Origin: an uncultured Chlamydiae bacterium
Lineage (GTDB): Bacteria > Chlamydiota > Chlamydiia > Chlamydiales > Parachlamydiaceae
Reading direction: 5' to 3'
Assembly: GCA_963754655.1 (NCBI GenBank)
Contig: CAVWGN010000001.1
Span: forward strand, 2,464,001 to 2,528,000
DNA: 64,000 nt
Shown: positions 46,425-64,000 of the stretch, piece after piece
How the letters are laid out: every line of letters begins with the position of its first letter
Position numbering within the stretch: the first letter of the stretch is position 1
Position numbers and translations under genes: made by a program
Notes under the pieces: model-generated
Databases searched by the model: none
What the model was told of the DNA's origin: nothing
The model's input: the letters and a program-made list of their open reading frames with translations, nothing else

Positions 46425-48179
46425 TCAACGGTAAATTCTTGCTCCTTTTGGTAATTCAATTAATCGTGGTAGATTAGAGCATCCGCGGTAGTTAATCTCT
46501 TGCACCTTTGGTACCTGAGGGAGGCTTTGCAGCTTATCGCAATCGCTGCAGTTAAGCTTTTGCACATTTGGCAGCTCAAGCAGGCTTTGCAGACTAGAGC
46601 ATCCGCAGCAGTCAAGCTCTTGCACATTTGGTAGCTCAGGTAGGCTTTGCAGATTAGAACATCTGTTGCAGTCAAGCACTTGCACATTTGGCAGCTCAGG
46701 CAGGCTTTGCAGATTAGAGCACCAGCTGCAGTTAAGTTTTTGCACGTTTGGCAGCTCAGGCAGGCTTTTCAGATTAGAACATCCGCAGCAGTTAAGTTTT
46801 TGCATGTTTGGCAGCTCAGGTAGGCTTTGCAGACTAGAGCATCCGCTGCAGTTAAGCTCTTGCACATTTGGAAGCTCAGGTAGGCTTTGCAGATTACGAC
46901 ACAAGCTGCAGTTAAGCTCTTGCACATTTGGCAGCTCAGGCAGGCTTTGCAGATTAGAGCAATCCCAGCAGTAAAGCCTTTGCACATGTGGCAGCTCAAG
47001 CAGGCTTTGCAGATTAGAGCATCCGCTGCAGCTAAGCTCTTGCACATTTGGCAGCTCAGGTAGGCTTTGCAGACTAGAGCATGCGCAGCAGTCAAGCTTT
47101 TGCACATTTGTTAGCTCAGGCAGGCTTTGCAGACTAGAGCATCCGCTGCAGTTAAGCTTTTGCACATTTGGCAGCTCAGGTAGGCTTTGCAGACTAGAGC
47201 ATCCGCTGCAGTTAAGCTCTTGCACATTTGGCAGCTCAGGCAGGCTTTGCAGACTAGAGCATCCGCAGCAGTCAAGCTTTTGCACATATGGCAGCTCAAG
47301 CAGGCTTTGCAGATTAGAGCATCTGCTGCAGTCAAGCTCTTGCACATTTGGCAGCTCAGGCAGGCTTTGCAGATTAGAGCAATCGCAGCAGTAAAGCCTT
47401 TGCACATTTGGCAGCTCAAGCAGGCTTTGCAGATTAGAGCATCTGCTGCAGTCAAGCTCTTGCATATTTGGCAGCTCAGGTAAGCTTTGCAGATTAGAAC
47501 ATCCGCTGCAGATAAGCCTTATGAGACTACTTGCCTGACCGGGCAAATTTCTTATTTTATCCGATTTAATCATTAATTGATTAAGATTTGGACACTTTTT
47601 AAATAATTCTTCAATGTCGCTTTCCTCTACATCCGGAAATTCCCTTAGGTTTGCTCCTGTCAAACCATAATCGATCGCATACTGAACAGCCTCTTTTGCA
47701 GTGTTGCATCTATATTTTTTAAGAGAAACAAGCTGCTCGCTAGCCCATTCTTTTTCCTCATTTTTTGCAATCTCGCTCAATTGCTTGGAAAGATGCATCT
47801 TTTCCAATCCACTTTGAACTCCTCCCTTTTTATAAGGAATTTCAGAATCGCGTGGAGGAATATAAGAATAGATTTTCCTCCATAATTCTTCTGGCAATTG
47901 AGAAAGCTCGTTAGAGAACACGTTCTCAGGTTTTGGCTCAGTGTCGTTATTTGCAGGTGAATTGGGATTGACATAAGGAGGAAGATCTAATTCCTCGAGA
48001 TCTAATTTTTTCCCTTTATACTGTCGATAAATAAAAAATAGAGCTGTGATTGCACCAAAAATTGCAAAAACAACAGCCGCAATTTTTGCATATTTTTGAG
48101 TTGCTTCTGAAAAATAATTGCTAGTTGTCAAATTGCTTTTTAACTGTTGAAGATTAGAAGGAATAGATGGGAACATCAA
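46425..48179 (-). CDS. TM-F-box-LRR protein, type A, about 18 repeats, with C-cap
   Basis: TM KIAAVVFAIFGAITALFFIY; F-box-like LSQLPEELWRKIYSYI; 20-aa LQSLPELPNVQxLxCxxCxN repeats. Confidence 0.9.
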   Translation of the reverse strand: MMFPSIPSNLQQLKSNLTTSNYFSEATQKYAKIAAVVFAIFGAITALFFIYRQYKGKKLDLEELDLPPYVNPNSPANNDTEPKPENVFSNELSQLPEELWRKIYSYIPPRDSEIPYKKGGVQSGLEKMHLSKQLSEIAKNEEKEWASEQLVSLKKYRCNTAKEAVQYAIDYGLTGANLREFPDVEESDIEELFKKCPNLNQLMIKSDKIRNLPGQASSLIRLICSGCSNLQSLPELPNMQELDCSRCSNLQSLLELPNVQRLYCCDCSNLQSLPELPNVQELDCSRCSNLQSLLELPYVQKLDCCGCSSLQSLPELPNVQELNCSGCSSLQSLPELPNVQKLNCSGCSSLQSLPELTNVQKLDCCACSSLQSLPELPNVQELSCSGCSNLQSLLELPHVQRLYCWDCSNLQSLPELPNVQELNCSLCRNLQSLPELPNVQELNCSGCSSLQSLPELPNMQKLNCCGCSNLKSLPELPNVQKLNCSWCSNLQSLPELPNVQVLDCNRCSNLQSLPELPNVQELDCCGCSSLQSLLELPNVQKLNCSDCDKLQSLPQVPKVQEINYRGCSNLPRLIELPKGARIYR

Positions 48180-48704
48180 GGCCTCTTATTGTTTAGTGAC
48201 GAAGTTGTAAATTTAATTAAAAAAAACAATTTTTAAATTACATTTTTTGAAAGTTTAATTAATTATTAAATTAATTTCAATTTAATTTATAATATTTTCC
48301 AGTCAATACGCAGTTACGCAATGTAATCGATTTAAAGAAATTCAATGATGCTCTAAGCAGCGTTAACTGCCTACACATCAAGCTTAAGCTAAGAGAGGAA
48401 ACCAGGCGGAGATATTATCAAAAGTTGTTGATTTTTAGAATAAGGAAAGCATAACCTCAATACATTTTCGACAATTAATCAAAAATTTCAAAAAGAGGCA
48501 ACGCCATAAAAGAGAGTGTCATAAGACCAGCGTGTTTTGTCCTAATAGGATATGAATGAAGAATGCTTGCAAGTGAATATGCCACAATTTCTCTTGTAGT
48601 CTTTCAGACTACGATAGGAGTGTGTCTTTTTCCCAGGCCGCTGGCTTGGGCTATTTCACTTTAGAGCCCTTCAGGCTCAAAACGCCTTGATTAGCCAGCC
48701 TAGA

Positions 48705-48851
48705 GCCGGGACTTAACAAAGAACTTTTTTGGGCTTGATATTCTTCATGTCAATTTAACAACACCCCGCCTGTAACAGGCTTTAAAGGCATACTTCCCGA
48801 AAATGACGGGAAAAACATCAAAGCCCAAAACAGTTCTTTGTTAAGCCCCGG
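48705..48851. repeat. Hairpin repeat, family 2
   Basis: CCGGGACTTAACAAAGAAC...GTTCTTTGTTAAG(C/T)CCCGG; also at 50360-50508, 57535-57680 and 58048-58196. Confidence 0.9.
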
Positions 48852-48868
48852 TCATAGGCTAGGAAGGA

Positions 48869-50192
48869 GATTGTGTAAAAAATTATGTGCAAAAAAAGGT
48901 CATGGTAAGATGATCTCTTATTAACTACAAAAAGAGGTATACCATGACCAAAAAGTATTCTATTGAGAAAAACAAATTATCTAAAGAAGTTATTGAACAA
49001 GATGTTGATTTAATGAAGTCTCTTATGAAAACTGCTCTCGAAAATTTTTTAGAAGCCGAAATGATCGAGACTTTGGAAGCAAATAAGAGTGAAAGATCCA
49101 AAGAAAGAAAAGGCTATAGAGCAGGTTATTATACAAGGCACTTAGTGACGCGAATAGGCAATATAGAGCTAAAAGTACCAAGAGACAGAGAGGGAATGTT
49201 TTCTACCGAGCTTTTTGAACGATATGAAAGATCGGAAAAAGCATTAGTATCAGCTCTAGCAGAAATGTATGTCCAAGGAGTATCAACCAGGAAAGTGAAG
49301 GCAATCACAGAAGAACTTTGCGGACATGAATTTTCAGCGACGACAATAAGCAACATCAATAAGAGCTTGGACGAGGACTTAAAGCAGTTTGCAAATAGAA
49401 AATTGACAGAAGTTTATCCTTATCTAATTGTAGATGCTCGTTATGAGAAAGTTAGAGAAAATGGGATAGTAAAATCGCAGGCTATATTAATTGCAGTAGG
49501 TGTGAATGGAGAAGGTTACAGGCAAGTATTAGCAGTGGAAATTGCAAATCGAGAATCTCACAATAGTTGGAAAGATTTTCTATTGAGATTGAAAGAAAGA
49601 GGATTAATAGGAGTTGAGTTGATTATTAGTGATGAGCATGCAGGGCTTAGGAAAGCGATAATGGAAGTATTTTATCAAATCCCTTGGCAAAGATGTTATG
49701 TTCATTTCTTAAGAAATGCAATTGATTATTTACCAAGAAAAGCAAACGACGATTGCTTACAAGAATTGCGATGGATCTATGATAGAAAGGATATTAAAGA
49801 AGCCAAAACAGATTTGAATATGTGGCTAGAGAAGTGGATGATGAAGTATCCAAAGTTATGTACATGGGTGGAGGAAAATATTTTTGAGACATTAACGTTT
49901 TACCAGTTTCCAAAACAACATCATAAGCATTTAAAAAGTTCGAACTTACTCGAGAGAGTAAATGAAGAAATTAAGAGAAGAACACACGTTATTAGAATTT
50001 TTCCAAATGAAGAGAGTTGCTTAAGATTGATATTAGCAATTGCAGTTGAGGTTCATGAGGGATGGGTAGATAAAAGATATTTAAATATGGATCTATTAAA
50101 AGAGCAAAAGAAACAAGAACAACTGAGCGTTGAAAAAATAGCTTAACCTAATGAGATCTCTTACCAATTTGCACATAATACTTGACACAACT
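48869..50192 (+). mobile_element. IS256-family element (transposase 48944-50146)
   Basis: VPRDR, GVSTRKV, QRCYVHF and ERVNEEIKRR motifs; imperfect TIR TTGTGT..TTATGTGCAAA; no target-site duplication. Confidence 0.93.
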
Positions 50193-50601
50193 CTAACGTG
50201 GCTCAAATTTGTTTTTTGGGTAACCGTGGGTTTCGGCTTGCGCCTACACCCACGGCTACTATCCATGCGCGGCTAACGCCGCTCGTCGCTGAGGGAAAGG
50301 ATATGGATCAAGCAACATTGCAAAAACAAAGATAAAAAATTCCGATTACCTAGCCATATGCCGGGACTTAACAAAGAACTGTTTTGGGCTTGATAATTTT
50401 TCGCGTCATTTTCGATAAATATGCCTCTAAATGCTGTTATAGGCGGGGCGTTGTTAAATTGATACGAAGAATATCAAGCCCAAAAACAGTTCTTTGTTAA
50501 GTCCCGGCCCAGAGCGAAGCGGCGTGGCGAATGAAGGCGTCGCTTAACCTAGCGCTCGCTCTTAGCTTGATCCGTATATCCTCCGAGATTAGGCTCAAAA
50601 C

Positions 50602-51712
50602 CTAATGTAACGAAGTATTAGATCTTATATACCTATCAAGAAGTGCCACAAGTTTTTTCTCATCAAAATGATTCATGATCTGAGCAATATAGAGATCGGG
50701 TCTAATCAAACACATTCCATGCTTTTCCGCACAACCATACAATTTAGAAATAGAAAAATCACTGTCTAAAATGAGAGGGCAAAGGTTTGGATGAATCTCT
50801 TTAGGACTAATCAAGAAACAAGCGATTGTGTTCGAATAATTTTGCTGAACCTTTTCTATGAGCATCTTTAACTGACTGATATCCTCTTCTTGAATATATG
50901 ATCCTGTAAATAATAAAAGATTGTGATAAGGGTGGCGAAAATAATCATAAAGGCGTTGAGAGGAATTGGCAATAGACAGATCGGGAGCTCTTTCTCCTGG
51001 CTGAGGAGCCTCTTTTTTAACGTTCGTTTGATAATCAATAATGGGACTTTGCTTATAACGAATAGCAAGTTGAGTGATCACACTACTCAATTTACTTTTT
51101 AAAAATTGACTACGCCCAATCATATTGTGGATTAAACTATCTCGAATGTTAAGCAATATAGAGTTTGAAACTGAACCCATCTTTGTTAATCTTTCTGTCA
51201 CACGGATAATGCTCTTAATGATTGGGTAGCGCTCATCTTGGTAACTTTTTAATAATAAAAAAGGATAAGCTTGACCTTTGATCACCAAAGCTAATTTCCA
51301 AGCCAGATTATAAGCATCTTGTATTCCTGTATTCATTCCTTGTCCTCCAGCGGGAGAATGGACATGAGCAGCATCGCCTGTAATAAAAACATTTCCTTGA
51401 GACATACGACTTGCAATTTCACTATGAATCCAAAATGGAGAGAGCCATACAATCGTTTTTACCTTGAAAAATCCTTTAGATCGATTATGAACAAGTTCTT
51501 GCATCTCTTCTGCAGTGGGCTTTATTTCAATTTCTTGCCTTCCCATATTCGCAATGACACGATAAAGATGATTTCCCAAGGGAAAACAAGCCAACACCTT
51601 CCCATTCCCCAAAAATCCATCTCCTTTATCTTGAGATAAGGGATTCTCTAGTATCATATCAGCTACTAAATATTCTTCTGGCAGATCTTCTCCTGAAAAA
51701 GGGATATGGCAT
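50602..51712 (-). pseudogene. 5'-truncated FAD-dependent monooxygenase
   Basis: GDAAHVHSPAGGQGMNTGIQDA and LIRPD present; N-terminal GxGxxG half absent. Confidence 0.85.
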
Positions 51713-52017
51713 TTGGTTTTGTCGTTGAAAAGTTTGCCTTGTTTCTCAAGCGACTCTCTTTTCTTTTAGGAGAAGCGCATTTGTCAGAACATCCTTATGC
51801 ATCCAATCAAATTCAAGGAAATTCCTCAATTTTTGGAATTTTTCTTGTGTGACTTGGTGCTTTAATAGGTCTTCTCGCATTTATCAAATACAAGCATATT
51901 GAAAAACAAATAGCACAAGGAAAATATCAATTTTCTATTCTGTTAGAAATCATGCTGACACTTTCAGTGCTCGCTGTTGGCATTTTTCTTATCATTTACC
52001 TTCTTGAAAGTATTTAA
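51706..52017 (+). pseudogene. 5'-truncated yidH/DUF202 copy with internal TGA
   Basis: Near-identical to 45815-46126; GGA>TGA near 51850. Confidence 0.9.
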
Positions 52018-52059
52018 GACAACCTTTCCTGAAAAATTCATCTAGCTGGATGAAGCCAT

Positions 52060-53643
52060 TCAACGGTAACTTCTTGCTCCTTTTAATAATTGAGTCAAAT
52101 TGCGCAGATTAGAGCAGCCGCTGTAGTTAATCTCTTGCAAATTTGGTAGCTCAGGTAGGCTTTGCAGATGAACGCAATCGCTGCAGTCAATCTTTTGCAC
52201 ATTTGGCAGCTCAGGTAGGCTTTGCAGATTATTACACCGATTGCATTTAAGCACTTGAACCTTTGGCAGCTCAGGTAGGCTGTGCAGATTGGGGCAAAAG
52301 TTGCATGTAAGCTCTTGTACGTTTGACAGCTCAGGTAGGGTTTGCAGCTTATCGCAATAGCTACAGTCAAGCTTTTGCACATTTGGCAGCTCAGGAGGCA
52401 GGCTTTGCAGATTATGGCAAACGTGGCATGTAAGCTCTTGTACGTTTGGCAGCGCAGGTAGGCTTTGCAGCTTGTGGCAAAATCTACAGTCAAGCACTTG
52501 CACATGTGGCAACTCAGGCAGGTTTTGCAGATTACGACAATAGGTGCAGTCAAGCTTTTTCACCTTTGGCAGCTCAGGTAAGTTTTGCAGATTATAGCAC
52601 TGGCTACAGTTAAGCTTTTGCACATTTGGCAGCTCGGGCAGGCTTTGCAAATCATAGCAATCGCTACAGTAAAGCTTTTGCACATTTGGCAGCTCGGGTA
52701 GGCTTTGCAGCTTAGAGCAAGTGCTGCAGTAAAGCTTTTGCACCTTTGGCAACTCAGGTAAGTTTTGCAGATTAAAGCATCCGCGGCAGTCCAGCTTTTG
52801 CACATTTGGAAGCTCAGGCAGGCTTTGCAGATTATGGCATCTGCGACAGTAAAGCATTTGCATATTTGGCAGCTCAGGTAGGCTTTTCAGATTAGAACAT
52901 CCGCTGCAGTCAAGCCTTATGAGACTACTTGCCTGATCGGGCAAATTTCTTATGTTATCCGATTTAATCATTAATTGATTAAGATTTGGACACTGTTTAA
53001 ATAATTCTTCAATGTCGCTTTCCTCTAAATCCGGAAATTCTCTTAAGTTTGCTCCTGTCAAACCATGATCGATCACATATTGGACAGCCTCTTTTGCAGT
53101 ATTGCATCTATATTTTTTAAGAGAAACAAGCTCTTCGCTCGCCCATTTTTTTTCCTCATTTTTTGCAATCTTACTGAATTGCTTGGAAAGATACATATTT
53201 TCCAATCCACTTTGAACTCCTCCCTTTTTATAAGGAATGTCAAACTTACGTGGAGGAATATGGGAACAGACTTTACGCCATAATTTTTCTGTTAATTGAG
53301 GGAATTCAGTGCTAGTTTCTCGTTCAGCAAAATCAGGAACAATGGGTAAACAAGCAATGTCTTGTCTCTTTCTATTTATTTCCTCTTCTTCTTGTTTGGC
53401 TGCATTGTCTAACAGATTTGCAGGTGAATTGGGATTGATATAACAAGGAAGATTTGATTCCTCGAGATCTAATTTTTTCCCTTTATACTGGCGATAAATG
53501 AAAAATAGAGCTGTGATTGCACCAAAAATTGCAAAAACAACAGCCGCAATTTTTGCATATTGTTGAGTTCCTTTTGAAAAATAACTGCTAGTTGTCAAAT
53601 CGCTTTGTAACTGTTGAAGATTAGAGGGAATAAATGGGAACAT
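52060..53643 (-). CDS. TM-(degenerate F-box)-LRR protein, type B, about 14 repeats
   Basis: Same architecture with a longer linker; QLTEKLWRKVCSHI. Confidence 0.9.
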   Translation of the reverse strand: MFPFIPSNLQQLQSDLTTSSYFSKGTQQYAKIAAVVFAIFGAITALFFIYRQYKGKKLDLEESNLPCYINPNSPANLLDNAAKQEEEEINRKRQDIACLPIVPDFAERETSTEFPQLTEKLWRKVCSHIPPRKFDIPYKKGGVQSGLENMYLSKQFSKIAKNEEKKWASEELVSLKKYRCNTAKEAVQYVIDHGLTGANLREFPDLEESDIEELFKQCPNLNQLMIKSDNIRNLPDQASSLIRLDCSGCSNLKSLPELPNMQMLYCRRCHNLQSLPELPNVQKLDCRGCFNLQNLPELPKVQKLYCSTCSKLQSLPELPNVQKLYCSDCYDLQSLPELPNVQKLNCSQCYNLQNLPELPKVKKLDCTYCRNLQNLPELPHVQVLDCRFCHKLQSLPALPNVQELTCHVCHNLQSLPPELPNVQKLDCSYCDKLQTLPELSNVQELTCNFCPNLHSLPELPKVQVLKCNRCNNLQSLPELPNVQKIDCSDCVHLQSLPELPNLQEINYSGCSNLRNLTQLLKGARSYR

Positions 53644-53679
53644 TAAGGCCTCTTATTATTTAGTGACGAAGCTGTAAAT

Positions 53680-55713
53680 TTAATTAAACAAACCATTGGT
53701 ATAGAATTTGAGTTGCAAAAATCTGCTACAGCGAAGCACTTGCACATTTGGCAGCTTAGGCAGGCTTTGCAGATTAGAACATTCGCGGCAGTCAAGCTCT
53801 TGCACATTTGGTAGCTCAGGTAGGCTTTGCAGATTAGAACATCTGTTGCAGTTAAGCTTTTGCACATTTGGCAGCTCAGGCAGGCTTTGCAGATTAGAAC
53901 ATTCGTGACAGTCAAGCTCTTGCACATTTGGTAGCTCAGGTAGGCTTTGTAGATTAGAACATCTGTTACAGTCAAGCACTTGCACATTTGGCAGCTCAGG
54001 CAGGCTTTGCAGATTAGAACATTCGTGACAGTCAAGCTCTTGCACATTTGGTAGCTCAGGTAGGCTTTGTAGATTAGAACATCTGTTGCAGTTAAGCTTT
54101 TGCACATTTGGCAGCTCAGGCAGGCTTTGCAGATTAGAACATTCGTGACAGTCAAGCTCTTGCACATTTGGTAGCTCAGGTAGGCTTTGTAGATTAGAAC
54201 ATCTGTTACAGTCAAGCACTTGCACATTTGGCAGCTCAGGCAGGCTTTGCAGATTAGAACATTCGTGACAGTCAAGCTCTTGCACATTTGGTAGCTCAGG
54301 TAGGCTTTGTAGATTAGAACATCTGTTACAGTCAAGCACTTGCACATTTGGCAGCTCAGGCAGGCTTTGCAGATTAGAACATTCGTGACAGTCAAGCACT
54401 TGCACATTTGGCAGCTCAGGCAGGCTTTGCAGATTAGAACATTCGTGACAGTCAAGCACTTGCACATTTGGCAGCTCAGGCAGGCTTTGCAGATTAGAGC
54501 AATAGCCGCAGTCAAGTTCTTGCACATTTGGCAGCTCAGGCAGATATTGCAGACTAGTGCACCAGCTGCAGTCAAGCTCTTGCACATTTGGCAGCTCAGG
54601 CAGGCTTTGCAGATTAGAGCAATCCCAGCAGTAAAGCCTTTGCACATGTGGCAGCTCAAGCAGGCTTTGCAGATTAGAGCATCCGCTGCAGCTAAGCTCT
54701 TGCACATTTGGCAGCTCAGGTAGGCTTTGCAGACTAGAGCATGCGCAGCAGTCAAGCTTTTGCACATTTGTTAGCTCAGGCAGGCTTTGCAGACTAGAGC
54801 ATCCGCTGCAGTTAAGCTTTTGCATATTTGGCAGATCAGGTAGGCTTTGCAGATTAGAACATCCGCAGTAAAGCTTTTGCACATTTGGCAGCTCAGGCAG
54901 GCTTTGCAGATTAGAACATCCGCTGCAGTCAAGCTCTTGCACATTTGGCAGATCAGGTAGGCTTTGCAGATTAGAACATCCGCCGCAGTCAAGCTTTTGC
55001 ACATTTGGCAGCTCAGGTAGGCTTTGCAGATTAGCACATCCGCTGCAGTCAAGTCTTATGAGACTACTTGCCTGATCTGGCAAATTTCTTATTTTATCCG
55101 ATTTAATTATTAATTGATTAAGATTTGGACACTGTTTAAATAATTCTTCAATATCGCTTTCCTCTACGTCCGGAAATTCTCTTAGGTTTGCTCCTGTCAA
55201 ACCATGATCGATCGCATACTGAACAGCCTCTTTTGCAGTGTTGCATCTATATTTTTTAAGAGAAACAAGCTGCTCGCTAGCCCATTCTTTTTCCTCATTT
55301 TTTGCAATCTCGCTCAATTGCTTGGAAAGATGCATCTTTTCCAATCCACTTTGAACTCCTCCCTTTTTATAAGGAATTTCAGAATCGCGTGGAGGAATAT
55401 AAGAATAGATTTTCCTCCATAATTCTTCTGGCAATTGAGAAAGCTCGTTAGAGAACACGTTCTCAGGTTTTGGCTCAGTGTCGTTATTTGCAGGTGAATT
55501 GGGATTGACATAAGGAGGAAGATCTAATTCCTCGAGATCTAATTTTTTCCCTTTATACTGTCGATAAATAAAAAATAGAGCTGTGATTGCACCAAAAATT
55601 GCAAAAACAACAGCCGCAATTTTTGCATATTTTTGAGTTGCTTCTGAAAAATAACTGCTAGTTGTCAAATCGCTTTGTAACTGTTGAAGATTAGAAGGAA
55701 TAGATGGGAACAT
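53680..55713 (-). CDS. TM-F-box-LRR protein, type A, about 23 repeats
   Basis: Same N-terminus as 46425-48179; ends FYTNGLFN. Confidence 0.9.
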   Translation of the reverse strand: MFPSIPSNLQQLQSDLTTSSYFSEATQKYAKIAAVVFAIFGAITALFFIYRQYKGKKLDLEELDLPPYVNPNSPANNDTEPKPENVFSNELSQLPEELWRKIYSYIPPRDSEIPYKKGGVQSGLEKMHLSKQLSEIAKNEEKEWASEQLVSLKKYRCNTAKEAVQYAIDHGLTGANLREFPDVEESDIEELFKQCPNLNQLIIKSDKIRNLPDQASSLIRLDCSGCANLQSLPELPNVQKLDCGGCSNLQSLPDLPNVQELDCSGCSNLQSLPELPNVQKLYCGCSNLQSLPDLPNMQKLNCSGCSSLQSLPELTNVQKLDCCACSSLQSLPELPNVQELSCSGCSNLQSLLELPHVQRLYCWDCSNLQSLPELPNVQELDCSWCTSLQYLPELPNVQELDCGYCSNLQSLPELPNVQVLDCHECSNLQSLPELPNVQVLDCHECSNLQSLPELPNVQVLDCNRCSNLQSLPELPNVQELDCHECSNLQSLPELPNVQVLDCNRCSNLQSLPELPNVQELDCHECSNLQSLPELPNVQKLNCNRCSNLQSLPELPNVQELDCHECSNLQSLPELPNVQVLDCNRCSNLQSLPELPNVQELDCHECSNLQSLPELPNVQKLNCNRCSNLQSLPELPNVQELDCRECSNLQSLPKLPNVQVLRCSRFLQLKFYTNGLFN

Positions 55714-55749: not shown

Positions 55750-57005
55750 TTAATTAAACAAACCATTGGTATAGAATTTGAGTTGCAAAAATCTGCTACA
55801 GCGAAGCACTTGCACATTTGGCAGCTTAGGCAGGCTTTGCAGATTAGAACATTCGCGGCAGTCAAGCTCTTGCACATTTGGTAGCTCAGGTAGGCTTTGC
55901 AGATTAGAACATCTGTTGCAGTTAAGCTTTTGCACATTTGGCAGCTCAGGCAGATATTGCAGACTAGTGCACCAGCTGCAGTCAAGCTCTTGCACATTTG
56001 GCAGCTCAGGCAGGCTTTGCAGGTTAGAGCATCCGCTGCAGTTAAGCTTTTGCACATTTGGCAGCTCAGGCAGGCTTTGCAGATTAAAGCATTCGTAGCA
56101 GTTAAGCTCTTGCACATTTGGCAGCTCAGGCAGGCTTTGCAGATTATAACATCCGCTGCAGTCAAGTTCTTGCACATTTGGCAGCTCAGGCAGGCTTTGT
56201 AGATTAAAGCACTTGCTGCAGTTAAGCTCTTGCACATCTAGCAGTTCAGGTAGGCTTTGCAGACCAGAACATTCGCTACAGTTAAGCTCTTGCACATTTG
56301 GCAGCTCAGGTAGGCTTTGCAGATTAGCACATCCGCTGCAGTCAAGTCTTATGAGACTACTTGCCTGATCTGGCAAATTTCTTATTTTATTCGATTTAAT
56401 TATTAATTGATTAAGATTTGGACACTGTTTAAATAATTCTTCAATATCGCTTTCCTCTACGTCCGGAAATTCTCTTAGGTTTGCTCCTGTCAAACCATGA
56501 TCGATCGCATACTGAACAGCCTCTTTTGCAGTGTTGCATCTATATTTTTTAAGAGAAACAAGCTGCTCGCTAGCCCATTCTTTTTCCTCATTTTTTGCAA
56601 TCTCGCTCAATTGCTTGGAAAGATGCATTATTTCCAATCCACTTTGAACTCCTCCCTTTTTATAAGGAATTTCAGAATCGCGTGGAGGAATATAAGAATA
56701 GATTTTCCTCCATAATTCTTCTGGCAATGGAGGGGGCTCGTTAGAGAACACGTTCTCAGGTTTGGCTCAGTGTCGTTATTTGCAGGTGAATTGGGATTGA
56801 CATAAGGAGGAAGATCTAATTCCTCGAGATCTAATTTTTTCCCTTTATACTGTCGATAAATAAAAAATAGAGCTGTGATTGCACCAAAAATTGCAAAAAC
56901 AACAGCCGCAATTTTTGCATATTTTTGAGTTGCTTCTGAAAAATAATTGCTAGTTGTCAAATTGCTTTTTAAATGTTGAAGATTAGAAGGAATAGATGGG
57001 AACAT
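55750..57005 (-). pseudogene. TM-F-box-LRR type A, about 10 repeats, with 1-nt deletion near 56761
   Basis: GGTTTGGC here versus GGTTTTGGC in paralogues; split into ORFs 56628-57005 and 55750-56751. Confidence 0.85.
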
Positions 57006-57534
57006 TAAGGCCTCTTATTGTTTAGTGACGAAGTTGTAAATTTAATTAAAAAAAACAATTTTTAAATTACATTGTTTGAAAGTTTAATTAATTCTTAAAT
57101 TAATTTCAATTTAATTTATAATATTTTCCAGTCAATACGCAGTTACGCAATGTAATCGATTTAAAGAAATTCAATGATGCTCTAAGCAGCGTTAACTGCC
57201 TACACATCAAGCTTAAGCTAAGAGAGGAAACCAGGCGGAGATATTATCAAAAGTTGTTGATTTTTAGAATAAGGAAAGCATAACCTCAATACATTTTCGA
57301 CAATTAATCAAAAATTTCAAAAAGAGGCAACGCCATAAAAGAGAGTGTCATAAGACCAGCGTGTTTTGTCCTAATAGGATATGAATGAAGAATGCTTGCA
57401 AGTGAATATGCCACAATTTCTCTTGTAGTCTTTCAGACTACGATAGGAGTGTGTCTTTTTCCCAGGCCGCTGGCTTGGGCTATTTCACTTTAGAGCCCTT
57501 CAGGCTCAAAACGCCTTGATTAGCCAGCCTAGAG

Positions 57535-58196
57535 CCGGGACTTAACAAAGAACTTTTTTGGGCTTGATATTCTTCATGTCAATTTAACAACACCCCGCCT
57601 GTAACAGGCTTTAAAGGCATACTTCCCGAAAATGACGGGAAAAACATCAAAGCCCAAAACAGTTCTTTGTTAAGCCCCGGTCATAGGCTAGGAAGGAAAT
57701 GCTTCTGGCAAACTCCAGAAGCTAAATTTGTCGCTCAAGCGGCGTTAGCCGCGCATGGATAGTAGCCGTGGGTGTAGGCGCAAGCCGGAACCCACGGTGT
57801 ATGGTAAAAAAAATGAAGCCACGTTAGTGGCGTAGGAAATTGATGGTGGAGCAATGTTTATTTAAACGAATGCTACGCCACTAACGTGGCTCAAATTTGT
57901 TTTTTGGGTAACCGTGGGTTTCGGCTTGCGCCTACACCCACGGCTACTATCCATGCGCGGCTAACGCCGCTCGTCGCTGAGGGAAAGGATATGGATCAGG
58001 CAACATTGCAAAAACAAAGATAAAAAATTCCGATTACCTAGCCATATGCCGGGACTTAACAAAGAACTGTTTTGGGCTTGATAATTTTTCGCGTCATTTT
58101 CGATAAATATGCCTCTAAATGCTGTTATAGGCGGGGCGTTGTTAAATTGATACGAAGAATATCAAGCCCAAAAACAGTTCTTTGTTAAGTCCCGGC
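57535..58196. repeat. Nested palindrome, family 2
   Basis: Two mutually inverted ~147-bp hairpins flank a central IR at 57738-57971. Confidence 0.88.
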
Positions 58197-58289
58197 CCAG
58201 AGCGAAGCGGCGTGGCGAATGAAGGCGTCGCTTAACCTAGCGCTCGCTCTTAGCTTGATCCGTATATCCTCCGAGATTAGGCTCAAAAC

Positions 58290-59400
58290 CTAATGTAACG
58301 AAGTATTAGATCTTATATACCTATCAAGAAGTGCCACAAGTTTTTTCTCATCAAAATGATTCATGATCTGAGCAATATAGAGATCGGGTCTAATCAAACA
58401 CATTCCATGCTTTTCCGCACAACCATACAATTTAGAAATAGAAAAATCACTGTCTAAAATGAGAGGGCAAAGGTTTGGATGAATCTCTTTAGGACTAATC
58501 AAGAAACAAGCGATTGTGTTCGAATAATTTTGCTGAACCTTTTCTATGAGCATCTTTAACTGACTGATATCCTCTTCTTGAATATATGATCCTGTAAATA
58601 ATAAAAGATTGTGATAAGGGTGGCGAAAATAATCATAAAGGCGTTGAGAGGAATTGGCAATAGACAGATCGGGAGCTCTTTCTCCTGGCTGAGGAGCCTC
58701 TTTTTTAACGTTCGTTTGATAATCAATAATGGGACTTTGCTTATAACGAATAGCAAGTTGAGTGATCATACTACTCAATTTACTTTTTAAAAATTGACTA
58801 CGTCCAATCACATTGTGGATTAAACTATCTCGAATGTTAAGCAATATAGAGTTTGAAACTGAACCCATCTTTGTTAATCTTTCTGTCACACGGATAATGC
58901 TCTTAATGATTGGGTAGCGCTCATCTTGGTAACTTTTTAATAATAAAAAAGGATAAGCTTGGCCTTTGATCACCAAAGCTAATTTCCAAGCCAGATTATA
59001 AGCATCTTGTATTCCTGTATTCATTCCTTGTCCTCCAGCGGGAGAATGGACATGAGCAGCATCGCCTGCAATAAAAACATTTCCTTGAGACATACGACTT
59101 GCAATTTTACTATGAATCCAAAATGGAGAGAGCCATACAATCGTTTTTACCTTGAAAAATCCTTTAGATCGATTATGAACAAGTTCTTGCATCTCTTCTG
59201 CAGTGGTTTTATTTCAATTCTTGCCTTCTCATATTCGCAATGACACGATAAAGATGATTTCCCAAGGGAAAACAAGCCAACACCTTCCCATTCCCCAAAA
59301 ATCCATCTCCTTTATCTTGAGATAAGGGATTCTCTAGTATCATATCAACTACTAAATATTCTTCTGGCAGATCTTCTCCTGAAAAAGGAATATGGCATTT
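58290..59400 (-). pseudogene. 5'-truncated, frameshifted FAD monooxygenase (second copy)
   Basis: Near-identical to 50602-51712, with indels near 59205-59225. Confidence 0.85.
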
Positions 59401-59703
59401 GGTTTTGTCGTTGAAAAGTTTGCCTTGTTTCTCAAGCGACTCTCTTTTCTTTTAGGAGAAGCGCATTTGTCAAAACATCCTTACGCATCCAATCCAATTC
59501 AAGAAAATTCGTCAATTTTTGGAACTTTTCTTGTGGGCCTTGGTGCTTTAATAGGTCTTCTCGCATTTATCAAATACAAGCATGTTGAAAAACAAATAGC
59601 ACAAGGAAAATATCAATTTTCTATTTTGTTAGAGATCATGTTGACACTTTCCGTGCTCGCTGTTGGCATTTTTCTTATCATTTACCTTCTTGAAAGTATT
59701 TGA
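59392..59703 (+). pseudogene. 5'-truncated yidH/DUF202 copy
   Basis: Lacks the ANERTFLAW N-terminus. Confidence 0.85.
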
Positions 59704-59780
59704 GACAACCCTTCCTGAAAAATTCATCTAGCTGGATGAAGCCATTCAACGGTAACTTCTTGCTCCTTTTAATAATTGAG

Positions 59781-61454
59781 TCAAGTTCGCAGATTAGAGC
59801 AGCCACTATAGTTAATCTTTTGCAACTTTGGTAGCTCAGGTAGGCTTTGCAGATGAACGCAATCGCTACAGTCAATCTTTTGCACATTTGGAAGCTCAGG
59901 AGGCAGGCTTTGCAGATTATTACACCGATTGCATTCAAGCACTTGAACCTTTGGCAGCTCAGGTAGGCTGTACAGATTGGAGCAAAAGTTGCATGTAAGC
60001 TCTTGTACGTTTGGCAGCTCAGGTAGGCTTTGCAGCTTATCGCAATAGCTGCAGTCAAGCTTTTGCACATTTGGCAGCGCAGGAGGCAGGCTTTGCAGAT
60101 TACGACAAGAGCTGCAGTCAAGCTTTTGCATATTTGGCAGCTCAGACAGGCTTTGCAGATTGTGGCAAACGTGGCATGTAAGCTCTTGCACGTTTGGCAG
60201 CTCAGGTAGGCTTTGCAGCTTATAGCAATAGCTGCAGTCAAGCTTTTGCACATTTGGCAACTCAGGAGGCAGGCTTTGCAGCTTGTCGCAAAATCTACAG
60301 TCAAGCACTTGCACATGTGGCAACTCAGGCAGGTTTTGCAGATTACGACAATAGGTGCAGTCAAGCTTTTTCACCTTTGGCAGCTCAGGTAAGTTTTGCA
60401 GATTATAGCACTGGCTACAGTTAAGCTTTTGCACATTTGGCAGCTCGGGCAGGCTTTGCAGATCATAGCAATCGCTACAGTAAAGCTTTTGCACATTTGG
60501 CAGCTCAGGTAGGCTTTGCAGCTTAGAGCAAGTGCTGCAGTAAAGCTTTTGCACCTTTGGCAACTCAGGTAAGTTTTGCAGATTAAAGCATCCGCGGCAG
60601 TCCAGCTTTTGCACATTTGGCAGCTCAGGCAGGCTTTGCAGATTATGACATCTGCGACAGTAAAGCATTTGCATATTTGGCAGCTCAGGTAGGCTTTTCA
60701 GATTAGAACATCCACTGCAGTCAAGCCTTATGAGACTACTTGCCTGATCGGGCAAATTTCTTATGTTATCCGATTTAATCATTAATTGATTAAGATCTGG
60801 ACACTGTTTAAATAATTCTTCAATGTCGCTTTCCTCTAAATCCGGAAATTCTCTTAGGTTTGCTCCTGTCAAACCATGATCGATCACATATTGGACAGCC
60901 TCTTTTGCAGTATTGCATTTATATTTTTTAAGAGAAACAAGCTCTTCGCTCGCCCATTTTTTTTCCTCATTTTTTGCAATCTTACTGAATTGCTTGGAAA
61001 GATACATATTTTCCAATCCACTTTGAACTCCTCCCTTTTTATAAGGAATGTCAAATTTACGTGGAGGAATATGGGAACAGACTTTACGCCATAATTTTTC
61101 TGTTAATTGAGGGAATTCAGTGCTAGTTTCTCGTTCAGCAAAATCAGGAACAATGGGTAAACAAGCAATGTCTTGTCTCTTTCTATTTATTTCCTCTTCT
61201 TCTTGTTTGGCTGCATTATCTAACAGATTTGCAGGTGAATTGGGATTGATATAACAAGGAAGATTTGATTCCTCGAGATCTAATTTTTTCCCTTTATACT
61301 GGCGATAAATAAAAAATAGAGCTGTGATTGCACCAAAAATTGCAAAAACAACAGCCGCAATTTTTGCATATTGTTGAGTTCCTTTTGAAAAATAACTGCT
61401 AGTTGTCAAATCGCTTTTTAACTGTTGAAGATTAGAAGGAATAAATGGGAACAT
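59781..61454 (-). CDS. TM-(degenerate F-box)-LRR protein, type B, about 16 repeats; C-cap clipped by a 1-nt deletion
   Basis: Paralogue of 52060-53643; ends SNLRT* instead of SNLRNLTQLLKGARSYR. Confidence 0.88.
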   Translation of the reverse strand: MFPFIPSNLQQLKSDLTTSSYFSKGTQQYAKIAAVVFAIFGAITALFFIYRQYKGKKLDLEESNLPCYINPNSPANLLDNAAKQEEEEINRKRQDIACLPIVPDFAERETSTEFPQLTEKLWRKVCSHIPPRKFDIPYKKGGVQSGLENMYLSKQFSKIAKNEEKKWASEELVSLKKYKCNTAKEAVQYVIDHGLTGANLREFPDLEESDIEELFKQCPDLNQLMIKSDNIRNLPDQASSLIRLDCSGCSNLKSLPELPNMQMLYCRRCHNLQSLPELPNVQKLDCRGCFNLQNLPELPKVQKLYCSTCSKLQSLPELPNVQKLYCSDCYDLQSLPELPNVQKLNCSQCYNLQNLPELPKVKKLDCTYCRNLQNLPELPHVQVLDCRFCDKLQSLPPELPNVQKLDCSYCYKLQSLPELPNVQELTCHVCHNLQSLSELPNMQKLDCSSCRNLQSLPPALPNVQKLDCSYCDKLQSLPELPNVQELTCNFCSNLYSLPELPKVQVLECNRCNNLQSLPPELPNVQKIDCSDCVHLQSLPELPKLQKINYSGCSNLRT

Positions 61455-61711
61455 TAAGGCCTCTTATTATTTAGTAACGAACTTCTAAAATTAATTAAAA
61501 GAAAAAATTTTTAAATTAACTTGTTTGGAAGTTTAATTAATCCATAAATTAATTTCAATTTAATTTATAATATTTTTTCAGTCAATACGCAGTTACGCAA
61601 TGTGATCGATTTAAAGAAATTCAGGCATAGTTCAAACAGTTTTTGATTGCTTAGATAGGTTATCACAAACTTTTAGCTAAAGAGCTATGCATCTATATTC
61701 CTGCAGTCACC

Positions 61712-62050
61712 TTAATGTGATAGTGATGCTACTTTCTTACGATGTACTTTAATTGGTTTAGCTTTATAAAGAGGTTTAATTGCCTTGGGTTGCTTTTCAT
61801 TTTCTTCCACCCATAGATCATATTTTTGCTGGAGATTTAGCCATAAATTTGGTGTTGTATCAAACGCCGCCGCTAAACGAACTGCGATGCTAGGAGTGAC
61901 CGCACCTTTACCTGAACGAATCTTGAAAAGTGTATTTCTTGATATTCCAAGGTTGTTCGCCAACTCCTGTAAATTCAAATTGAGAATCTTAATGTAATGC
62001 TCATCTAATATAGTTCCAGGATGAGTGGGCTTTCTTTTCTTATCGCTCAT
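61712..62050 (-). CDS. higA: HigA antitoxin
   Basis: PTHPGTIL, HTH, and WLNLQQKYDLW motifs. Confidence 0.92.
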   Translation of the reverse strand: MSDKKRKPTHPGTILDEHYIKILNLNLQELANNLGISRNTLFKIRSGKGAVTPSIAVRLAAAFDTTPNLWLNLQQKYDLWVEENEKQPKAIKPLYKAKPIKVHRKKVASLSH

Positions 62051-62058
62051 ATTGACTC

Positions 62059-62340
62059 CTAATGATAATCTACCAAGTCAACTTCATAAGCCTCACCATT
62101 CTCGAATTTGAAAATAATGGTCCAATTGCCATTGACATGCACTGAATAAAATTCTTTTAGATCTCCTTTTAGTGGATGAAAATCAGAACCAGGAAAATTC
62201 ATGTCCTTTGGATTAATAGCGGCATCAAGTCTATCTAGAATCAATTCTATCTTATTTGCAAGTGATGGAAAGATTCCTGATTTGTCTCCAGTTTCAAAAA
62301 ATTTTTTCAGTCCCTTATTCTTAAATTTTCTGATAGTCAT
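62059..62340 (-). CDS. higB: HigB toxin (RelE-like)
   Basis: FKNKGLKKFF, HPLKGD, SVHVNGNW and DYH end; ATG at 62340. Confidence 0.92.
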   Translation of the reverse strand: MTIRKFKNKGLKKFFETGDKSGIFPSLANKIELILDRLDAAINPKDMNFPGSDFHPLKGDLKEFYSVHVNGNWTIIFKFENGEAYEVDLVDYH

Positions 62341-62360
62341 TCCAATCTCCACTAAATACC

Positions 62361-62389
62361 AGTGTAACCTAAAAGGTTACATATGTCAA
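62361..62389 (-). promoter_or_regulatory. higBA promoter with palindromic operator
   Basis: TTGACA-17-TACACT overlapping TGTAACCT-N3-AGGTTACA (62363-62381). Confidence 0.85.
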
Positions 62390-62424
62390 TTGAGATTATC
62401 GGTAGCCTGCTAATCAGCCTCTTT

Positions 62425-62672
62425 TTATTTGGCTGCATTGTCTACAAGATTTGCAAATGAATGGGGATTGACATAAGGAGGAAGATCTGATTCCTCAGAT
62501 CTAATTTTCTCTTTAGAGTGGTAATAAATAAAAAATAGAACTGTGATTGCACCAAAAATTGCAAAAAAACCGCCGCAATTTTTGCATAATTTTGAGTTGC
62601 TTCTGAAAAATAACTGCTAGTTGTCAAATCGCTTTGTAACTGTTGAAGATTAGAGGGAATAAATGGGAACAT
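62425..62672 (-). pseudogene. Frameshifted N-terminal stub of an LRR-family gene
   Basis: MFPFIPSNLQQ... with several indels; similarity ends after the type-B LDNAAK segment. Confidence 0.85.
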
Positions 62673-62708
62673 TAAGGCCTCTTATTGTTTAGTGACGAAG
62701 CTGTAAAT

Positions 62709-64000
62709 TTAATTAAACAAACCATTGGTATAGAATTTGAGTTGCAAAAATCCGCTACAGCGAAGCACTTGCACATTTGGCAGCTTAGGCAGGCTTTGCA
62801 GATTAGAACATTCGCGGCAGTCAAGCTCTTGCACATTTGGTAGCTCAGGTAGGCTTTGCAGATTAGAACATCTGTTGCAGTTAAGCTTTTGCACATTTGG
62901 CAGCTCAGGCAGGCTTTGCAGATTAAAGCAAGAGTAGCAGTTAAGCTCTTGCACATTTGGCAGCTCAGGCAGGCTTTGCAGATCATAAAATTCGCGGCAG
63001 TTAAGCTTTTGTACATTTGGCAGCTCAGGCAGGCTTTGCAGATCATAGCAACCGCTGCAGTCAAGCTTTTGCACATTTGGCAGCTCAGGCAGGCTTTGCA
63101 GATTAGAGCAATAGCTGCAGTCAAGCTTTTGCACATTTGGCAGCTCAGGCAGGCTTTGCAGATTAAAGCATCTGCGACAGTAAAGCTTTTGTACATTTGG
63201 CAGCTCAGGCAGGCTTTGCAGATTAGAGCATCCGCGGCAGTTAAGCTCTTGCACATTTGGCAGCTCAGGCAGGCTTTGCAGATTAGAGCATCCGCGGCAG
63301 TTAAGCTCTTGCACATTTGGCAGCTCAGGTAGGCTTTGCAGATTAGCACATCCGCTGCAGTCAAGTCTTATGAGACTACTTGCCTGATCTGGCAAATTTC
63401 TTATTTTATCCGATTTAATTATTAATTGATTAAGATTTGGACACTGTTTAAATAATTCTTCAATGTCGCTTTCCTCTACGTCCGGAAATTCTCTTAGGTT
63501 TGCTCCTGTCAAACCATGATCGATCACATACTGGACAGCCTCTTTTGCAGTGTTGCATCTATATTTTTTAAGAGAAACAAGCTGCTCGCTAGCCCATTCT
63601 TTTTCCTCACTTTTTGCAATCTCGCTCAATTGCTTGGAAAGATGCATCTTTTCCAATCCACTTTGAACTCCTCCCATTTTATAAGGAATTTCAGAATCGC
63701 GTGGAGGAATATAAGAATAGATTTTCCTCCATAATTCTTCTGGCAATTGAGAAAGCTCGTTAGAGAACACGTTCTCAGGTTTTGGCTCAGTGTCGTTATT
63801 TGCAGGTGAATTGGGATTGACATAAGGAGGAAGATCTAATTCCTCGAGATCTAATTTTTTCCCTTTATACTGTCGATAAATAAAAAATAGAGCTGTGATT
63901 GCACCAAAAATTGCAAAAACAACAGCCGCAATTTTTGCATATTTTTGAGTTGCTTCTGAAAAATAATTGCTAGTTGTCAAATTGCTTTTTAACTGTTGAA
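62709..64000 (-). CDS. TM-F-box-LRR type A, about 11 repeats; start lies just beyond the window
   Basis: Frame open to the window edge; same N-terminus; ends FYTNGLFN. Confidence 0.88.
   Translation of the reverse strand, partial: QQLKSNLTTSNYFSEATQKYAKIAAVVFAIFGAITALFFIYRQYKGKKLDLEELDLPPYVNPNSPANNDTEPKPENVFSNELSQLPEELWRKIYSYIPPRDSEIPYKMGGVQSGLEKMHLSKQLSEIAKSEEKEWASEQLVSLKKYRCNTAKEAVQYVIDHGLTGANLREFPDVEESDIEELFKQCPNLNQLIIKSDKIRNLPDQASSLIRLDCSGCANLQSLPELPNVQELNCRGCSNLQSLPELPNVQELNCRGCSNLQSLPELPNVQKLYCRRCFNLQSLPELPNVQKLDCSYCSNLQSLPELPNVQKLDCSGCYDLQSLPELPNVQKLNCREFYDLQSLPELPNVQELNCYSCFNLQSLPELPNVQKLNCNRCSNLQSLPELPNVQELDCRECSNLQSLPKLPNVQVLRCSGFLQLKFYTNGLFN

Follow-up and report, generated by a model that had tools for sequence, protein, structure and literature searches.

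Expanded families of F-box/leucine-rich repeat (LRR) proteins are a known hallmark of amoeba-associated chlamydiae. The closest described examples are the NEX1a families of the Parachlamydiaceae. In the excerpts of Domman et al. 2014 (PMC4209131) used here, these proteins consist of an F-box-like domain, a conserved region of ~50 aa and LRRs; their genes form tandem arrays with pseudogenes and follow birth-and-death evolution, and functional type III secretion signals were found in tested members. The same excerpts give global ratios of nonsynonymous to synonymous substitution (dN/dS) of 0.29-0.63, favor drift together with purifying selection, report no positive selection and see no convincing role for recombination. 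For other chlamydial LRR genes, LRR concatenation was modelled according to an excerpt of Eugster et al. 2007, and an excerpt of Ishida et al. 2014 describes many LRR genes in a Neochlamydia genome. We analyzed a gene cluster of this kind in a 64,000-nucleotide stretch of the chromosome of an uncultured member of the Parachlamydiaceae (G000:C1:2464001-2528000, referred to as the window). The cluster extends from position 46425 to the end of the window and contains six minus-strand paralogues (g46, g52, g54, g56, g59 and g62) and one decayed N-terminal remnant. It consists of young, segmentally duplicated genes for eukaryote-like F-box/LRR proteins. The source genome comprises 3.16 Mb in two contigs with 38.8% G+C and is 96.7% complete; its chromosome is one 3.12-Mb contig.

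Results

Architecture of the Repeat Arrays

The gene family has 12 members in the genome, six in the cluster, three another 48-58 kb further on and three dispersed. An earlier note on this DNA had described at least seven near-constant N-termini, which correspond to the six cluster genes and the remnant. All six proteins matched LRR families in Pfam (E = 9.2e-20 to 9.2e-42). Tandem Repeats Finder detected six 60-bp arrays, one per gene, with 17.5, 13.5, 22.1, 9.1, 15.1 and 10.1 copies at 76-88% matches, and no 60-bp array was found in the window outside these genes. Counted by LxxLP starts, g46, g52, g54, g56, g59 and g62 contain 18, 14, 22, 9, 15 and 10 units, respectively. The arrays reported by the earlier note were found again, but its counts of 10 to 23 repeats are about one too high because an irregular first repeat had been included. 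Long open reading frames (ORFs) starting with MCKSLTAA... were rejected as separate genes; they are alternative frames of the same stop-free repeats.

From the 12 genes 145 units were parsed, and the 128 units of exactly 20 residues were analyzed (left out were 17 units of other lengths: 19 residues, seven units; 21 residues, six units; and 17, 22, 23 and 40 residues, one unit each). The register of the repeat is L1-Q-S-L-P-E-L-P-N-V-Q-x12-L13-x14-C15-x16-x17-C18-x19-x20. Entropy was 1.4-3.4 bits at positions 12, 14, 16, 17, 19 and 20 and at most 0.98 bits elsewhere. For the 73 units of the window, values of 1.3-3.2 bits were obtained at the same six positions and of 0-0.91 bits at the other 14. 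The near-fixed framework with variation at the x positions, as described before, is therefore borne out by high entropy at six of the 20 positions and by 27 different CxxC pairs among the window units.

An AlphaFold2 (AF2) model of g46 (residues 89-584) was calculated from the alignment of the 12 paralogues, with a predicted local distance difference test (pLDDT) value of 87.9. DSSP assigned a three-residue strand to repeat positions 12-14, with a strict period of 20 and no helices in the repeats. Set against the canonical LRR segment LxxLxLxxNxL, the unit reads V-x-x-L-x-C-x-x-C-x-x-L, and the variable residues are x3, x5, x7, x8, x10 and x11. These are the classical concave-face and ascending-loop positions for ligand contacts in LRR proteins. 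In the model, the variable residues flank the predicted β-strand and lie on or beside the presumed LRR binding face, where the earlier note had placed them.

Each repeat carries two cysteines, which correspond to positions 6 and 9 in the core of the LRR consensus. In g54, 48 of the 677 residues are cysteines. We assign the repeats to the "Cys-containing" LRRs known from cytosolic F-box proteins. That class has the consensus LxxLxLxxCxxL, repeats of ~25-27 residues and a helical convex side. The segment VxxLxCxxCxxL of the window proteins matches the FBXL-type repeat, but the length of 20 residues and the helix-free convex side do not. The 20-residue repeat is a hybrid of the FBXL-type cysteine ladder and the bacterial LPxLP 20-mer class.

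The Domain Preceding the Repeats

The F-box/linker region is present in all 12 paralogues and in distant relatives. Ten of the 12 paralogues share the motif LPEE[LVI]W.K[IV]..[YH]I, with the LP motif and a hydrophobic helix 1. The sequence LPEELW..IYSYI, which had been noted before, occurs in four cluster copies; g52 and g59 have LTEKLW..VCSHI instead.

A profile of 118 N-terminal residues, built from the 12 paralogues and three distant relatives, was compared with the PDB. Only F-box/LRR proteins stood at the top of the list (FBXL17, E = 0.0018; Skp2, E = 0.003; FBXL2, E = 0.006; and TIR1), the matches being weak (E = 0.002-0.16). Searched against 1.84 billion proteins, the same profile retrieved 191 representatives at E ≤ 0.001, of which 75 reached E ≤ 1e-10. 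Their alignment has the pattern LPxE...IF..L, then a variable insert, then SGL....VSKxW......W. When 80 family and superfamily sequences were searched at E ≤ 0.1, the Pfam families F-box-like and F-box were found in 19 and 17 of them (best E = 2.5e-7), and the next commonest non-LRR families were Spo16_C (eight) and DUF1699 (six). At E ≤ 0.001, F-box families were matched by three of the 63 superfamily sequences. A profile of these 63 sequences found FBXL2 (E = 9.5e-56) as the first and FBXL17 (E = 2.8e-48) as the next match in the PDB, with the F-box aligned collinearly.

Residues 86-275 of g54 were modelled with AF2 from the 80-sequence alignment, yielding a pLDDT of 94.6 and a predicted template modelling score (pTM) of 0.89. 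In Foldseek, the only match to this model at E ≤ 0.001 was FBXL2 in complex with SKP1 (E = 1.7e-4), aligned from model residue 3 on. Seven of the best 50 structural matches start at residue 11 or before; six of these are F-box/LRR proteins (FBXL2, FBXL17 twice, FBXL5, D3 and KDM2B), and the seventh is InlB. The 496-residue model of g46 matched only generic LRR solenoids (RPP1, SHOC2, TLR8 and YopM) and was uninformative on the F-box. As modelled, a helical F-box fold stands directly before the repeats and can be superposed on an F-box protein solved with SKP1. An insertion of ~17 residues follows F-box helix 1, and a conserved linker of ~55 residues forms the first irregular LRRs. From profiles and models together, we conclude that the domain is a divergent F-box in which helix 1 is followed by an insertion, with an FBXL-like linker behind it; it may dock to Skp1.

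Mosaic Structure and Decay of the Copies

Self-comparison of the region revealed nested segmental duplications. Positions 55804-59400 match 62823-66423 at 97% identity, 50193-52915 match 57881-60606 at 94%, 50193-51714 match 64902-66423 at 99%, and 46905-48868 match 62754-64718 at 95%. The duplicated blocks are bounded by a 3' piece of a DUF202 gene and a 3' piece of a flavin adenine dinucleotide (FAD)-dependent monooxygenase gene, and the full genes flank the whole cluster. Block homology stops at 48868 and resumes at 50193. An insertion sequence (IS) element occupies this break and replaces ~183 bp that the other copies contain.

In paralogues whose 5' halves are near-identical, with proportions of synonymous differences (pS) of 0.016-0.024, the LRR arrays differ by 0.19-0.24 at synonymous sites of the framework. 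The paralogues are thus mosaics. Repeats 7-9 of g46 are identical to repeats 5-7 of g54 over 180 of 180 nt. Numbered by LxxLP starts, repeats 20-21 of g54 equal repeats 8-9 of g62, and repeat 21 of g54 equals repeat 8 of g56 (60 of 60 nt); repeat 8 of g54 is also identical to one repeat of g56. A run of HE and NR cassettes spans repeats 10-20 of g54, and g59 is two repeats longer than g52. Recombination-based diversification, as the earlier note had proposed, is supported by the identical cassettes at different positions, by the gain and loss of repeats and by the nesting of the duplications. The array originated by nested segmental duplication, with identical cassettes exchanged between copies.

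Three of the genes have a chimeric C terminus. The tail RFLQLKFYTNGLFN, followed by a stop, is present on g54, g56 and g62 (GFLQ... in g62). It results from in-frame reading into the 5' leader that belongs to the following gene, with a start codon 36 nt beyond the tail; in g54, this is the leader of g52. The tail marks an unequal crossover between LRR and upstream region that was later copied. In g46, the C-terminal cap ends with ...LPKGARIYR. In g59, the cap is shortened by a 1-nt deletion (...NLRT, then a stop), and in g56 the reading frame is interrupted behind the TM/spacer region (TM, transmembrane), where an A-run has lost 1 nt. The decayed N-terminal remnant sits 36 nt downstream of g62. 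The cluster shows, at an early stage, the birth-and-death pattern published for such families.

The only public run found with this DNA was a soil metagenome (X1; 27% of sampled words), and no RNA run was listed. X1 yielded short contigs of low depth and may share its sample with the assembly. Of 58 X1 contigs, 33 match at ≥ 99%, and one contig of 248 nt runs gap-free across 56575-56822, a stretch that includes the g56 deletion site. At both IS borders, 48868 and 50192, short X1 contigs break off. Eight X1 contigs among the matches listed are 214-698 nt long, and none of them spans a repeat array. One low-depth X1 contig joins 46425 (the 3' end of g46) to 60397 (in the repeat array of g59) with 35 unmatched letters between. 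This joint may reflect another paralogue, a strain arrangement or noise; one side is only 36 nt long at a likeness threshold of 90, and it was treated as noise rather than as a real arrangement.

Selection on Repeats and N-terminal Domain

In pairwise counts of 111 distinct units, the variable columns had a proportion of nonsynonymous differences (pN) of 0.40 and a pS of 0.32, and the framework had a pN of 0.07 and a pS of 0.25. Values of dN/dS were then obtained by a tree-based parsimony count, which is crude on short sequences with recombination present. For all 12 genes and a tree on all columns, dN/dS was 1.32 in the variable columns (214 nonsynonymous and 31 synonymous changes; P = 0.084) and 0.30 in the framework. 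A tree on the framework only gave 1.37 (P = 0.01) and 0.44, respectively. For the six genes of the window, 1.80 (P = 0.04) and 0.22 were determined. Column 19 alone showed a nonsynonymous excess with P = 0.0018 in the tree on all columns, 1.4e-7 in the framework-only tree and 0.027 in the six window genes.

The contrast between face and framework is strong, and the excess over neutrality is modest, borderline and not decisive. In the dN/dS check suggested in the earlier note, ratios of 1.3-1.8 in the variable columns stand against 0.2-0.4 in the framework, but P values of 0.01-0.08 depend on the tree, which leaves room for relaxed constraint. The F-box/linker region had a median dN/dS of 0.32 (61 of 66 pairs) and is under purifying selection.

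The Membrane Segment and Its Fusion Partners

Residues 1-80 of the cluster proteins comprise a polar leader, one hydrophobic helix and a low-complexity spacer. Serine, threonine, proline, asparagine and glutamine make up 53% of the first 30 residues. A Kyte-Doolittle mean above 1.6 was reached exclusively in windows that begin at residues 28-35, and the one TM helix listed in the earlier note is recovered as a single strongly hydrophobic segment at residues 32-50. The six family members outside the cluster have a soluble start, MINNQF..., without a hydrophobic segment; the membrane anchor is therefore a trait of the cluster and not of the whole family.

The leader/TM module also heads three unrelated proteins of the same genome, with 41-89% identity. 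Elsewhere, only weak matches of ~31-34% identity were found, in three of 40 related genomes. The simplest reading of this distribution is that the module may serve as a transferable label for secretion and anchoring. The genome holds one FHIPEP (SctV/FlhA-type) export-gate gene.

The three other proteins with the module differ in what follows it. In the first (L016:698-1753; G000:C1:2758698-2759753, plus strand), the module is 88-89% identical over residues 1-76/77 and is followed by six pentatricopeptide repeats (PPR; Pfam PPR_2, E = 1.3e-62). As PPR proteins are mostly known from eukaryotes, this protein looks like another membrane-addressed, eukaryote-like effector candidate. In the second (L017:590-1306), the module has 68% identity and the C-terminal domain had no Pfam match. 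In the third (L018:672-2645), with 41-44% identity in the module, the only match was to CCDC50_N and below threshold (E = 0.01, 16.5 bits compared with a cut-off of 27).

Relatives in Other Genomes

Among 41 related genomes, the F-box/linker profile was found in two, the source genome (12 places) and genome G019 (11 places); the three congeneric genomes gave no match. The copies in G019 carry FBXL-like LRRs of ~25-26 residues. Repeats of 20 residues were found beyond this genome in the metagenomic relative P0005, which shares the cap and aligns gap-free over 249 residues with 57% identity, and similar units of 20-22 residues were present in P0006 and P0014. In these relatives, a helical N-terminal domain of ~90 residues stands in place of the TM module. 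Ten clusters of relatives were looked up and had either no name or the name "hypothetical protein." A word-indexed search with residues 1-215 returned three proteins, all from this genome, and was uninformative given the limits on word and length.

Genomic Surroundings

The features of the cluster are listed in Table 1. The region of the first FAD monooxygenase fragment is 99% identical to 64902-66423, and the full gene of 552 aa lies just past the window. The full DUF202 gene is located at 45641-46126 (Pfam DUF202 match). The palindrome has a second copy past the window at 64555-65217. The HigB-like/helix-turn-helix gene pair is lodged within the array, between the upstream region of g59 and the decayed N-terminal remnant.

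Table 1. Position and content of the cluster genes and adjacent elements (window coordinates)
Feature	Position	Strand	Description
g46	46425-48179	-	Intact, 584 aa; leader, one TM helix, F-box-like domain, linker, 17 full 20-aa LRRs
IS element	48869-50192	+	Mutator/IS256-family transposase ORF 48944-50146; Pfam Transposase_mut 2.1e-143
FAD-dependent monooxygenase, 3' fragment	50602-51657	-	Pfam FAD_binding_3, profile positions 214-347 only
DUF202 gene, 3' fragment	51706-52022	+	98.4% identical to 45815-46131
g52	52060-53643	-	Intact, 527 aa; 13 LRRs and cap; F-box motif LTEKLW (Pro to Thr)
g54	53680-55713	-	677 aa, 22 LRRs; internal run of HE and NR cassettes
g54, LRR array	53683-55068	-	
g54, linker	55069-55263	-	
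g54, F-box-like domain	55264-55443	-	
g54, TM helix	55564-55620	-	
g56	55750-57005	-	Frames 56628-57005 (125 aa) and 55750-56751 (333 aa); 9 LRRs, chimeric tail
Palindrome, ~660 bp	57534-58196		In the upstream region common to the paralogues, duplicated together with the block; arms 79% identical over 694 bp (inverted match in self-BLAST)
FAD-dependent monooxygenase, second 3' fragment	58290-59192	-	Duplicated
DUF202 gene, second 3' fragment	59392-59703	+	Duplicated
g59	59781-61454	-	557 aa; recent duplicate of g52, F-box/linker dS 0.031, two extra repeats
Helix-turn-helix (HTH) antitoxin-like gene	61712-62050	-	Pfam HTH_3 1.9e-08
HigB-like toxin gene	62059-62352	-	Pfam HigB-like_toxin 5.4e-23
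Seventh leader/TM module, decayed	62446-62672	-	55-67% identity to residues 1-77, two frames
g62	62709 to past window end (64000)	-	438 aa in genome; 10 LRRs, chimeric tail

Conserved TTGACT-N16/17-TAAATT sites were observed upstream of g46, g56 and g59, and no such site was found in the 36-nt gaps before g54 and g52. Matches to the promoter site were not enriched in the scan (53 found, 40.8 ± 6.4 expected).

The genome contains 20 Pfam F-box matches at E ≤ 0.01, none of them from the 12-member family, and 17 F-box matches in other genes lie above the cut-off. A second tandem array (G000:C1:2072209-2083658) consists of seven genes of ~465 aa that match Pfam F-box, six above the cut-off and one at 19.5 bits. 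Within the window, a 76-aa ORF at 39842-39928 on the minus strand matches Pfam F-box with 22 bits, which is above the cut-off; it adjoins two overlapping transposase-like ORFs at 40024-40774 and may be the remnant of an F-box gene. A 135-bp unit, present in 2.1 tandem copies at 18177-18460 and again in a spurious 85-aa ORF at 38922-39179, is a dispersed repeat element.

Discussion

We favor the view that the cluster proteins are effectors of an amoeba-associated chlamydia, probably secreted adaptors that mimic components of the Skp1-cullin-F-box (SCF) ubiquitin ligase. After export, the TM helix would hold the protein in a host-facing membrane, and the F-box would dock to host Skp1, so that the SCF ligase would be hijacked. 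The variable residues on the concave face of the LRRs would choose which host proteins are bound. The repertoire changes by ordinary homologous recombination, through block duplication, unequal crossing-over between repeats and gene conversion of cassettes, and the copies later decay in the manner of birth-and-death evolution. The observations of the earlier note are confirmed by the present analysis, and its interpretation is partly supported.

Several findings weigh against this reading. In the Pfam F-box profile, the family scores 15.7-16.3 bits (E = 0.009-0.015) compared with a gathering cut-off of 20.5, with only positions 1-20 of 43 covered; the Pfam F-box-like score is 12.1 bits, and the N terminus of g52 has no Pfam match at all. 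The F-box plus LRR architecture claimed in the earlier note is supported by structure and profile evidence; it is the F-box alone that stays below the gathering cut-off of its Pfam model. The proline of the LP motif is a threonine in g52 and g59, a long insertion separates helix 1 from the next helix, and the F-box part reaches a pLDDT of only 39-62 when the 12-paralogue alignment is used alone. The F-box could accordingly be a degenerate relic, as its scores below the cut-off in all copies would suggest, on proteins that act as LRR binders or scaffolds without ligase recruitment. Such proteins would bind or sequester host proteins in the way of YopM, an LRR-only effector that acts by binding host proteins. 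We consider this unlikely, given that the F-box/linker region is under purifying selection at a median dN/dS of 0.32, that none of the 12 paralogues has lost the F-box and distant relatives have it too, and that a high-confidence model shows it packed against the LRRs in the manner of SKP1-bound FBXL2. Other unfavorable findings concern the state and the evolution of the array. Only g46 and g52 are fully intact, the remaining four of the six copies being truncated, chimeric or frameshifted. The excess of dN at the variable columns is marginal (P = 0.084, 0.01 and 0.04 across the three trees). At their variable codons, g52 and g59, which form the youngest collinear pair, differ by four nonsynonymous and three synonymous changes (pN/pS 0.27). 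There is no ongoing burst, and the diversity of the cassettes predates the gene copies. Alternatively, the array could be mostly neutral debris of amplification, produced by duplication driven by IS elements or repeats (genomic drift); most copies would then be turning into pseudogenes, and the variation at exposed LRR positions would reflect relaxed constraint. In favor of this view are the damage to four of the six copies, the fragments of flanking genes copied along with the blocks, the IS element at a breakpoint, a dN/dS near 1 in the variable columns, the lack of acceleration in g52/g59 and the preference for drift with purifying selection in such families in the excerpts of Domman et al. 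2014 (PMC4209131). As an account of the whole array this is rather improbable: framework and F-box/linker are constrained at dN/dS of 0.2-0.4, column 19 has a nonsynonymous excess in each of the three counts, and the chimeric tails of g54 and g62 keep long open frames. It also concerns the array and not the function of the family, and is compatible with secreted SCF-mimicking adaptors.

Two further alternatives place the problem in the cell envelope or in the assembly. With a 19-residue Kyte-Doolittle mean of 2.53 (residues 32-50), the helix is very hydrophobic and might insert in the bacterial inner membrane, and the one hydrophobic segment of ~19-21 residues (~30-50) is unlike the bilobed domain of Inc proteins; both points count against a host-facing membrane as the destination. 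The bilobed hydrophobic domain of chlamydial Inc proteins comprises ~40 or more residues. Chlamydial envelopes, moreover, are rich in disulfide-linked cysteine-rich proteins, and the abundant cysteines of g54 would suit periplasmic or surface-exposed LRRs that are anchored in the chlamydial inner membrane by the single, strongly hydrophobic helix and are not injected. That the proteins belong to the envelope is nevertheless very unlikely. The cysteines occupy LRR core positions 6 and 9, presumably as in cytosolic F-box proteins, the helix is missing from six paralogues, cytosolic F-box/LRR proteins of eukaryotes are the nearest matches in structure and profile, and the leader/TM module is also fused to PPR repeats, a eukaryote-like fold. 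Scarcely credible is an origin of the array, of the repeat numbers or of the two frameshifts in assembly or sequencing errors. Numerous substitutions separate the copies, their junctions and repeat "barcodes" differ, and the chromosome is a single contig. In favor of such errors, long tandem repeats and blocks of 93-99% identity are difficult for assembly, each of the 1-nt deletions falls in a short homopolymer or low-complexity run, and the X1 contigs are too short to bridge a repeat array; on the other side stand the 33 of 58 X1 contigs that match at ≥ 99% and the one that covers the g56 deletion site without a gap, in a run that may come from the same sample.

A stronger version of the adaptor reading can be formulated, in which the cluster is a working combinatorial repertoire. 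The 60-bp cassettes would be swapped continually by gene conversion among genes for membrane-anchored SCF receptors, and members of the population would display different sets in the inclusion membrane. We regard this version as quite doubtful. If it were true, the repertoire would be a bacterial effector counterpart of LRR receptors built by recombination and may track variable amoebal targets, and the leader/TM module, found also in front of PPR repeats and of two other domains, would act as a common address tag of such effectors.

Irrespective of the function of the proteins, the cluster is young enough to show the steps of its evolution. Blocks were duplicated and dragged along pieces of neighboring genes, cassettes are shared at different positions, repeats were gained or lost between copies of 97% similarity, and variation is confined to the predicted binding face. 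Two structural features are new, the short 20-residue cysteine-ladder LRR, which mixes traits of eukaryotic FBXL proteins and bacterial type III effectors, and the transferable leader/TM module, which may direct different eukaryote-like domains to a membrane. Should Skp1 binding and membrane location prove true, the cluster would be a natural system for how a bacterium retunes the receptors of a hijacked ubiquitin ligase.

Among known systems, the genes are most readily compared with those of the NEX1a type. Matched by published description and not by sequence, both share, as far as the excerpts of Domman et al. 2014 (PMC4209131) go, the F-box-like N terminus, the conserved region of ~50 aa and LRRs in variable number, as well as tandem arrays, pseudogenes and a lineage-specific copy number. 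The linker is common to the window genes, the 11 places in G019 and the 191 representatives found at E ≤ 0.001. Unlike the NEX1a-type genes, the window genes have 20-residue repeats with an LPELP turn, a leader/TM module and clear exchange of cassettes. New beside the known kind are therefore the hybrid repeat of 20 residues, the portable TM module, the cassette mosaicism and the site-restricted variation, with no literature search having been aimed at the 20-residue repeat.

Eukaryotic FBXL proteins (FBXL2, FBXL17, FBXL5 and Skp2) likewise have an F-box directly before Cys-containing LRRs and gave the best profile and fold matches, including the F-box. The identity in structural alignments is 14-23%, and the window proteins differ in the insertion after F-box helix 1 and in repeats of 20 residues without a helical convex side, compared with ~26 residues in FBXL proteins. 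The window genes, in addition, are bacterial and encode a TM anchor, and their products are putative binders of Skp1. The GALA/RipG effectors of Ralstonia solanacearum (structure 9j7j) are bacterial F-box/LRR paralogues that are thought to hijack host SCF. They come from a plant pathogen, have a 24-residue GALA-LRR and lack a TM module, and we know of no tandem segmental array of this kind among them.

The LRRs of IpaH, SspH and YopM resemble the window repeats in their 20-22 residues and the LPxLP turn, with 20-30% identity and a root mean square deviation of 1.9-2.8 Å over ~110 residues. In NCBIfam, weak matches limited to the LRRs were obtained to SspH2 and XopL (SspH2, 40-46 bits compared with a cut-off of 1243). 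In contrast to these effectors, the ladder residue is cysteine and not asparagine, the conserved segment is one residue longer, and an F-box-like domain precedes the repeats. A NEL-type ligase was considered and rejected: only 12-15 residues follow the last repeat, and a C-terminal NEL domain is absent.

Lamprey variable lymphocyte receptors (VLRs) and Xanthomonas transcription activator-like effectors (TALEs) also consist of near-identical tandem modules in which a few variable residues would set specificity; in VLRs, these residues lie on the concave face of the LRRs. The programmed code of the VLR or TALE type that the earlier note had likened to this array is not supported: there is no silent store of cassettes, no reverse transcriptase was found in the genome (no RVT_1 match at 96.7% completeness), four of the six copies are damaged, and g52/g59 show no acceleration. 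A diversity-generating retroelement was rejected on the same grounds, as no reverse transcriptase was found in the genome. The window system shows no silent donor cassettes, programmed assembly or reverse transcriptase; its variation is old relative to the gene duplications, and the exchange of cassettes fits ordinary homologous recombination.

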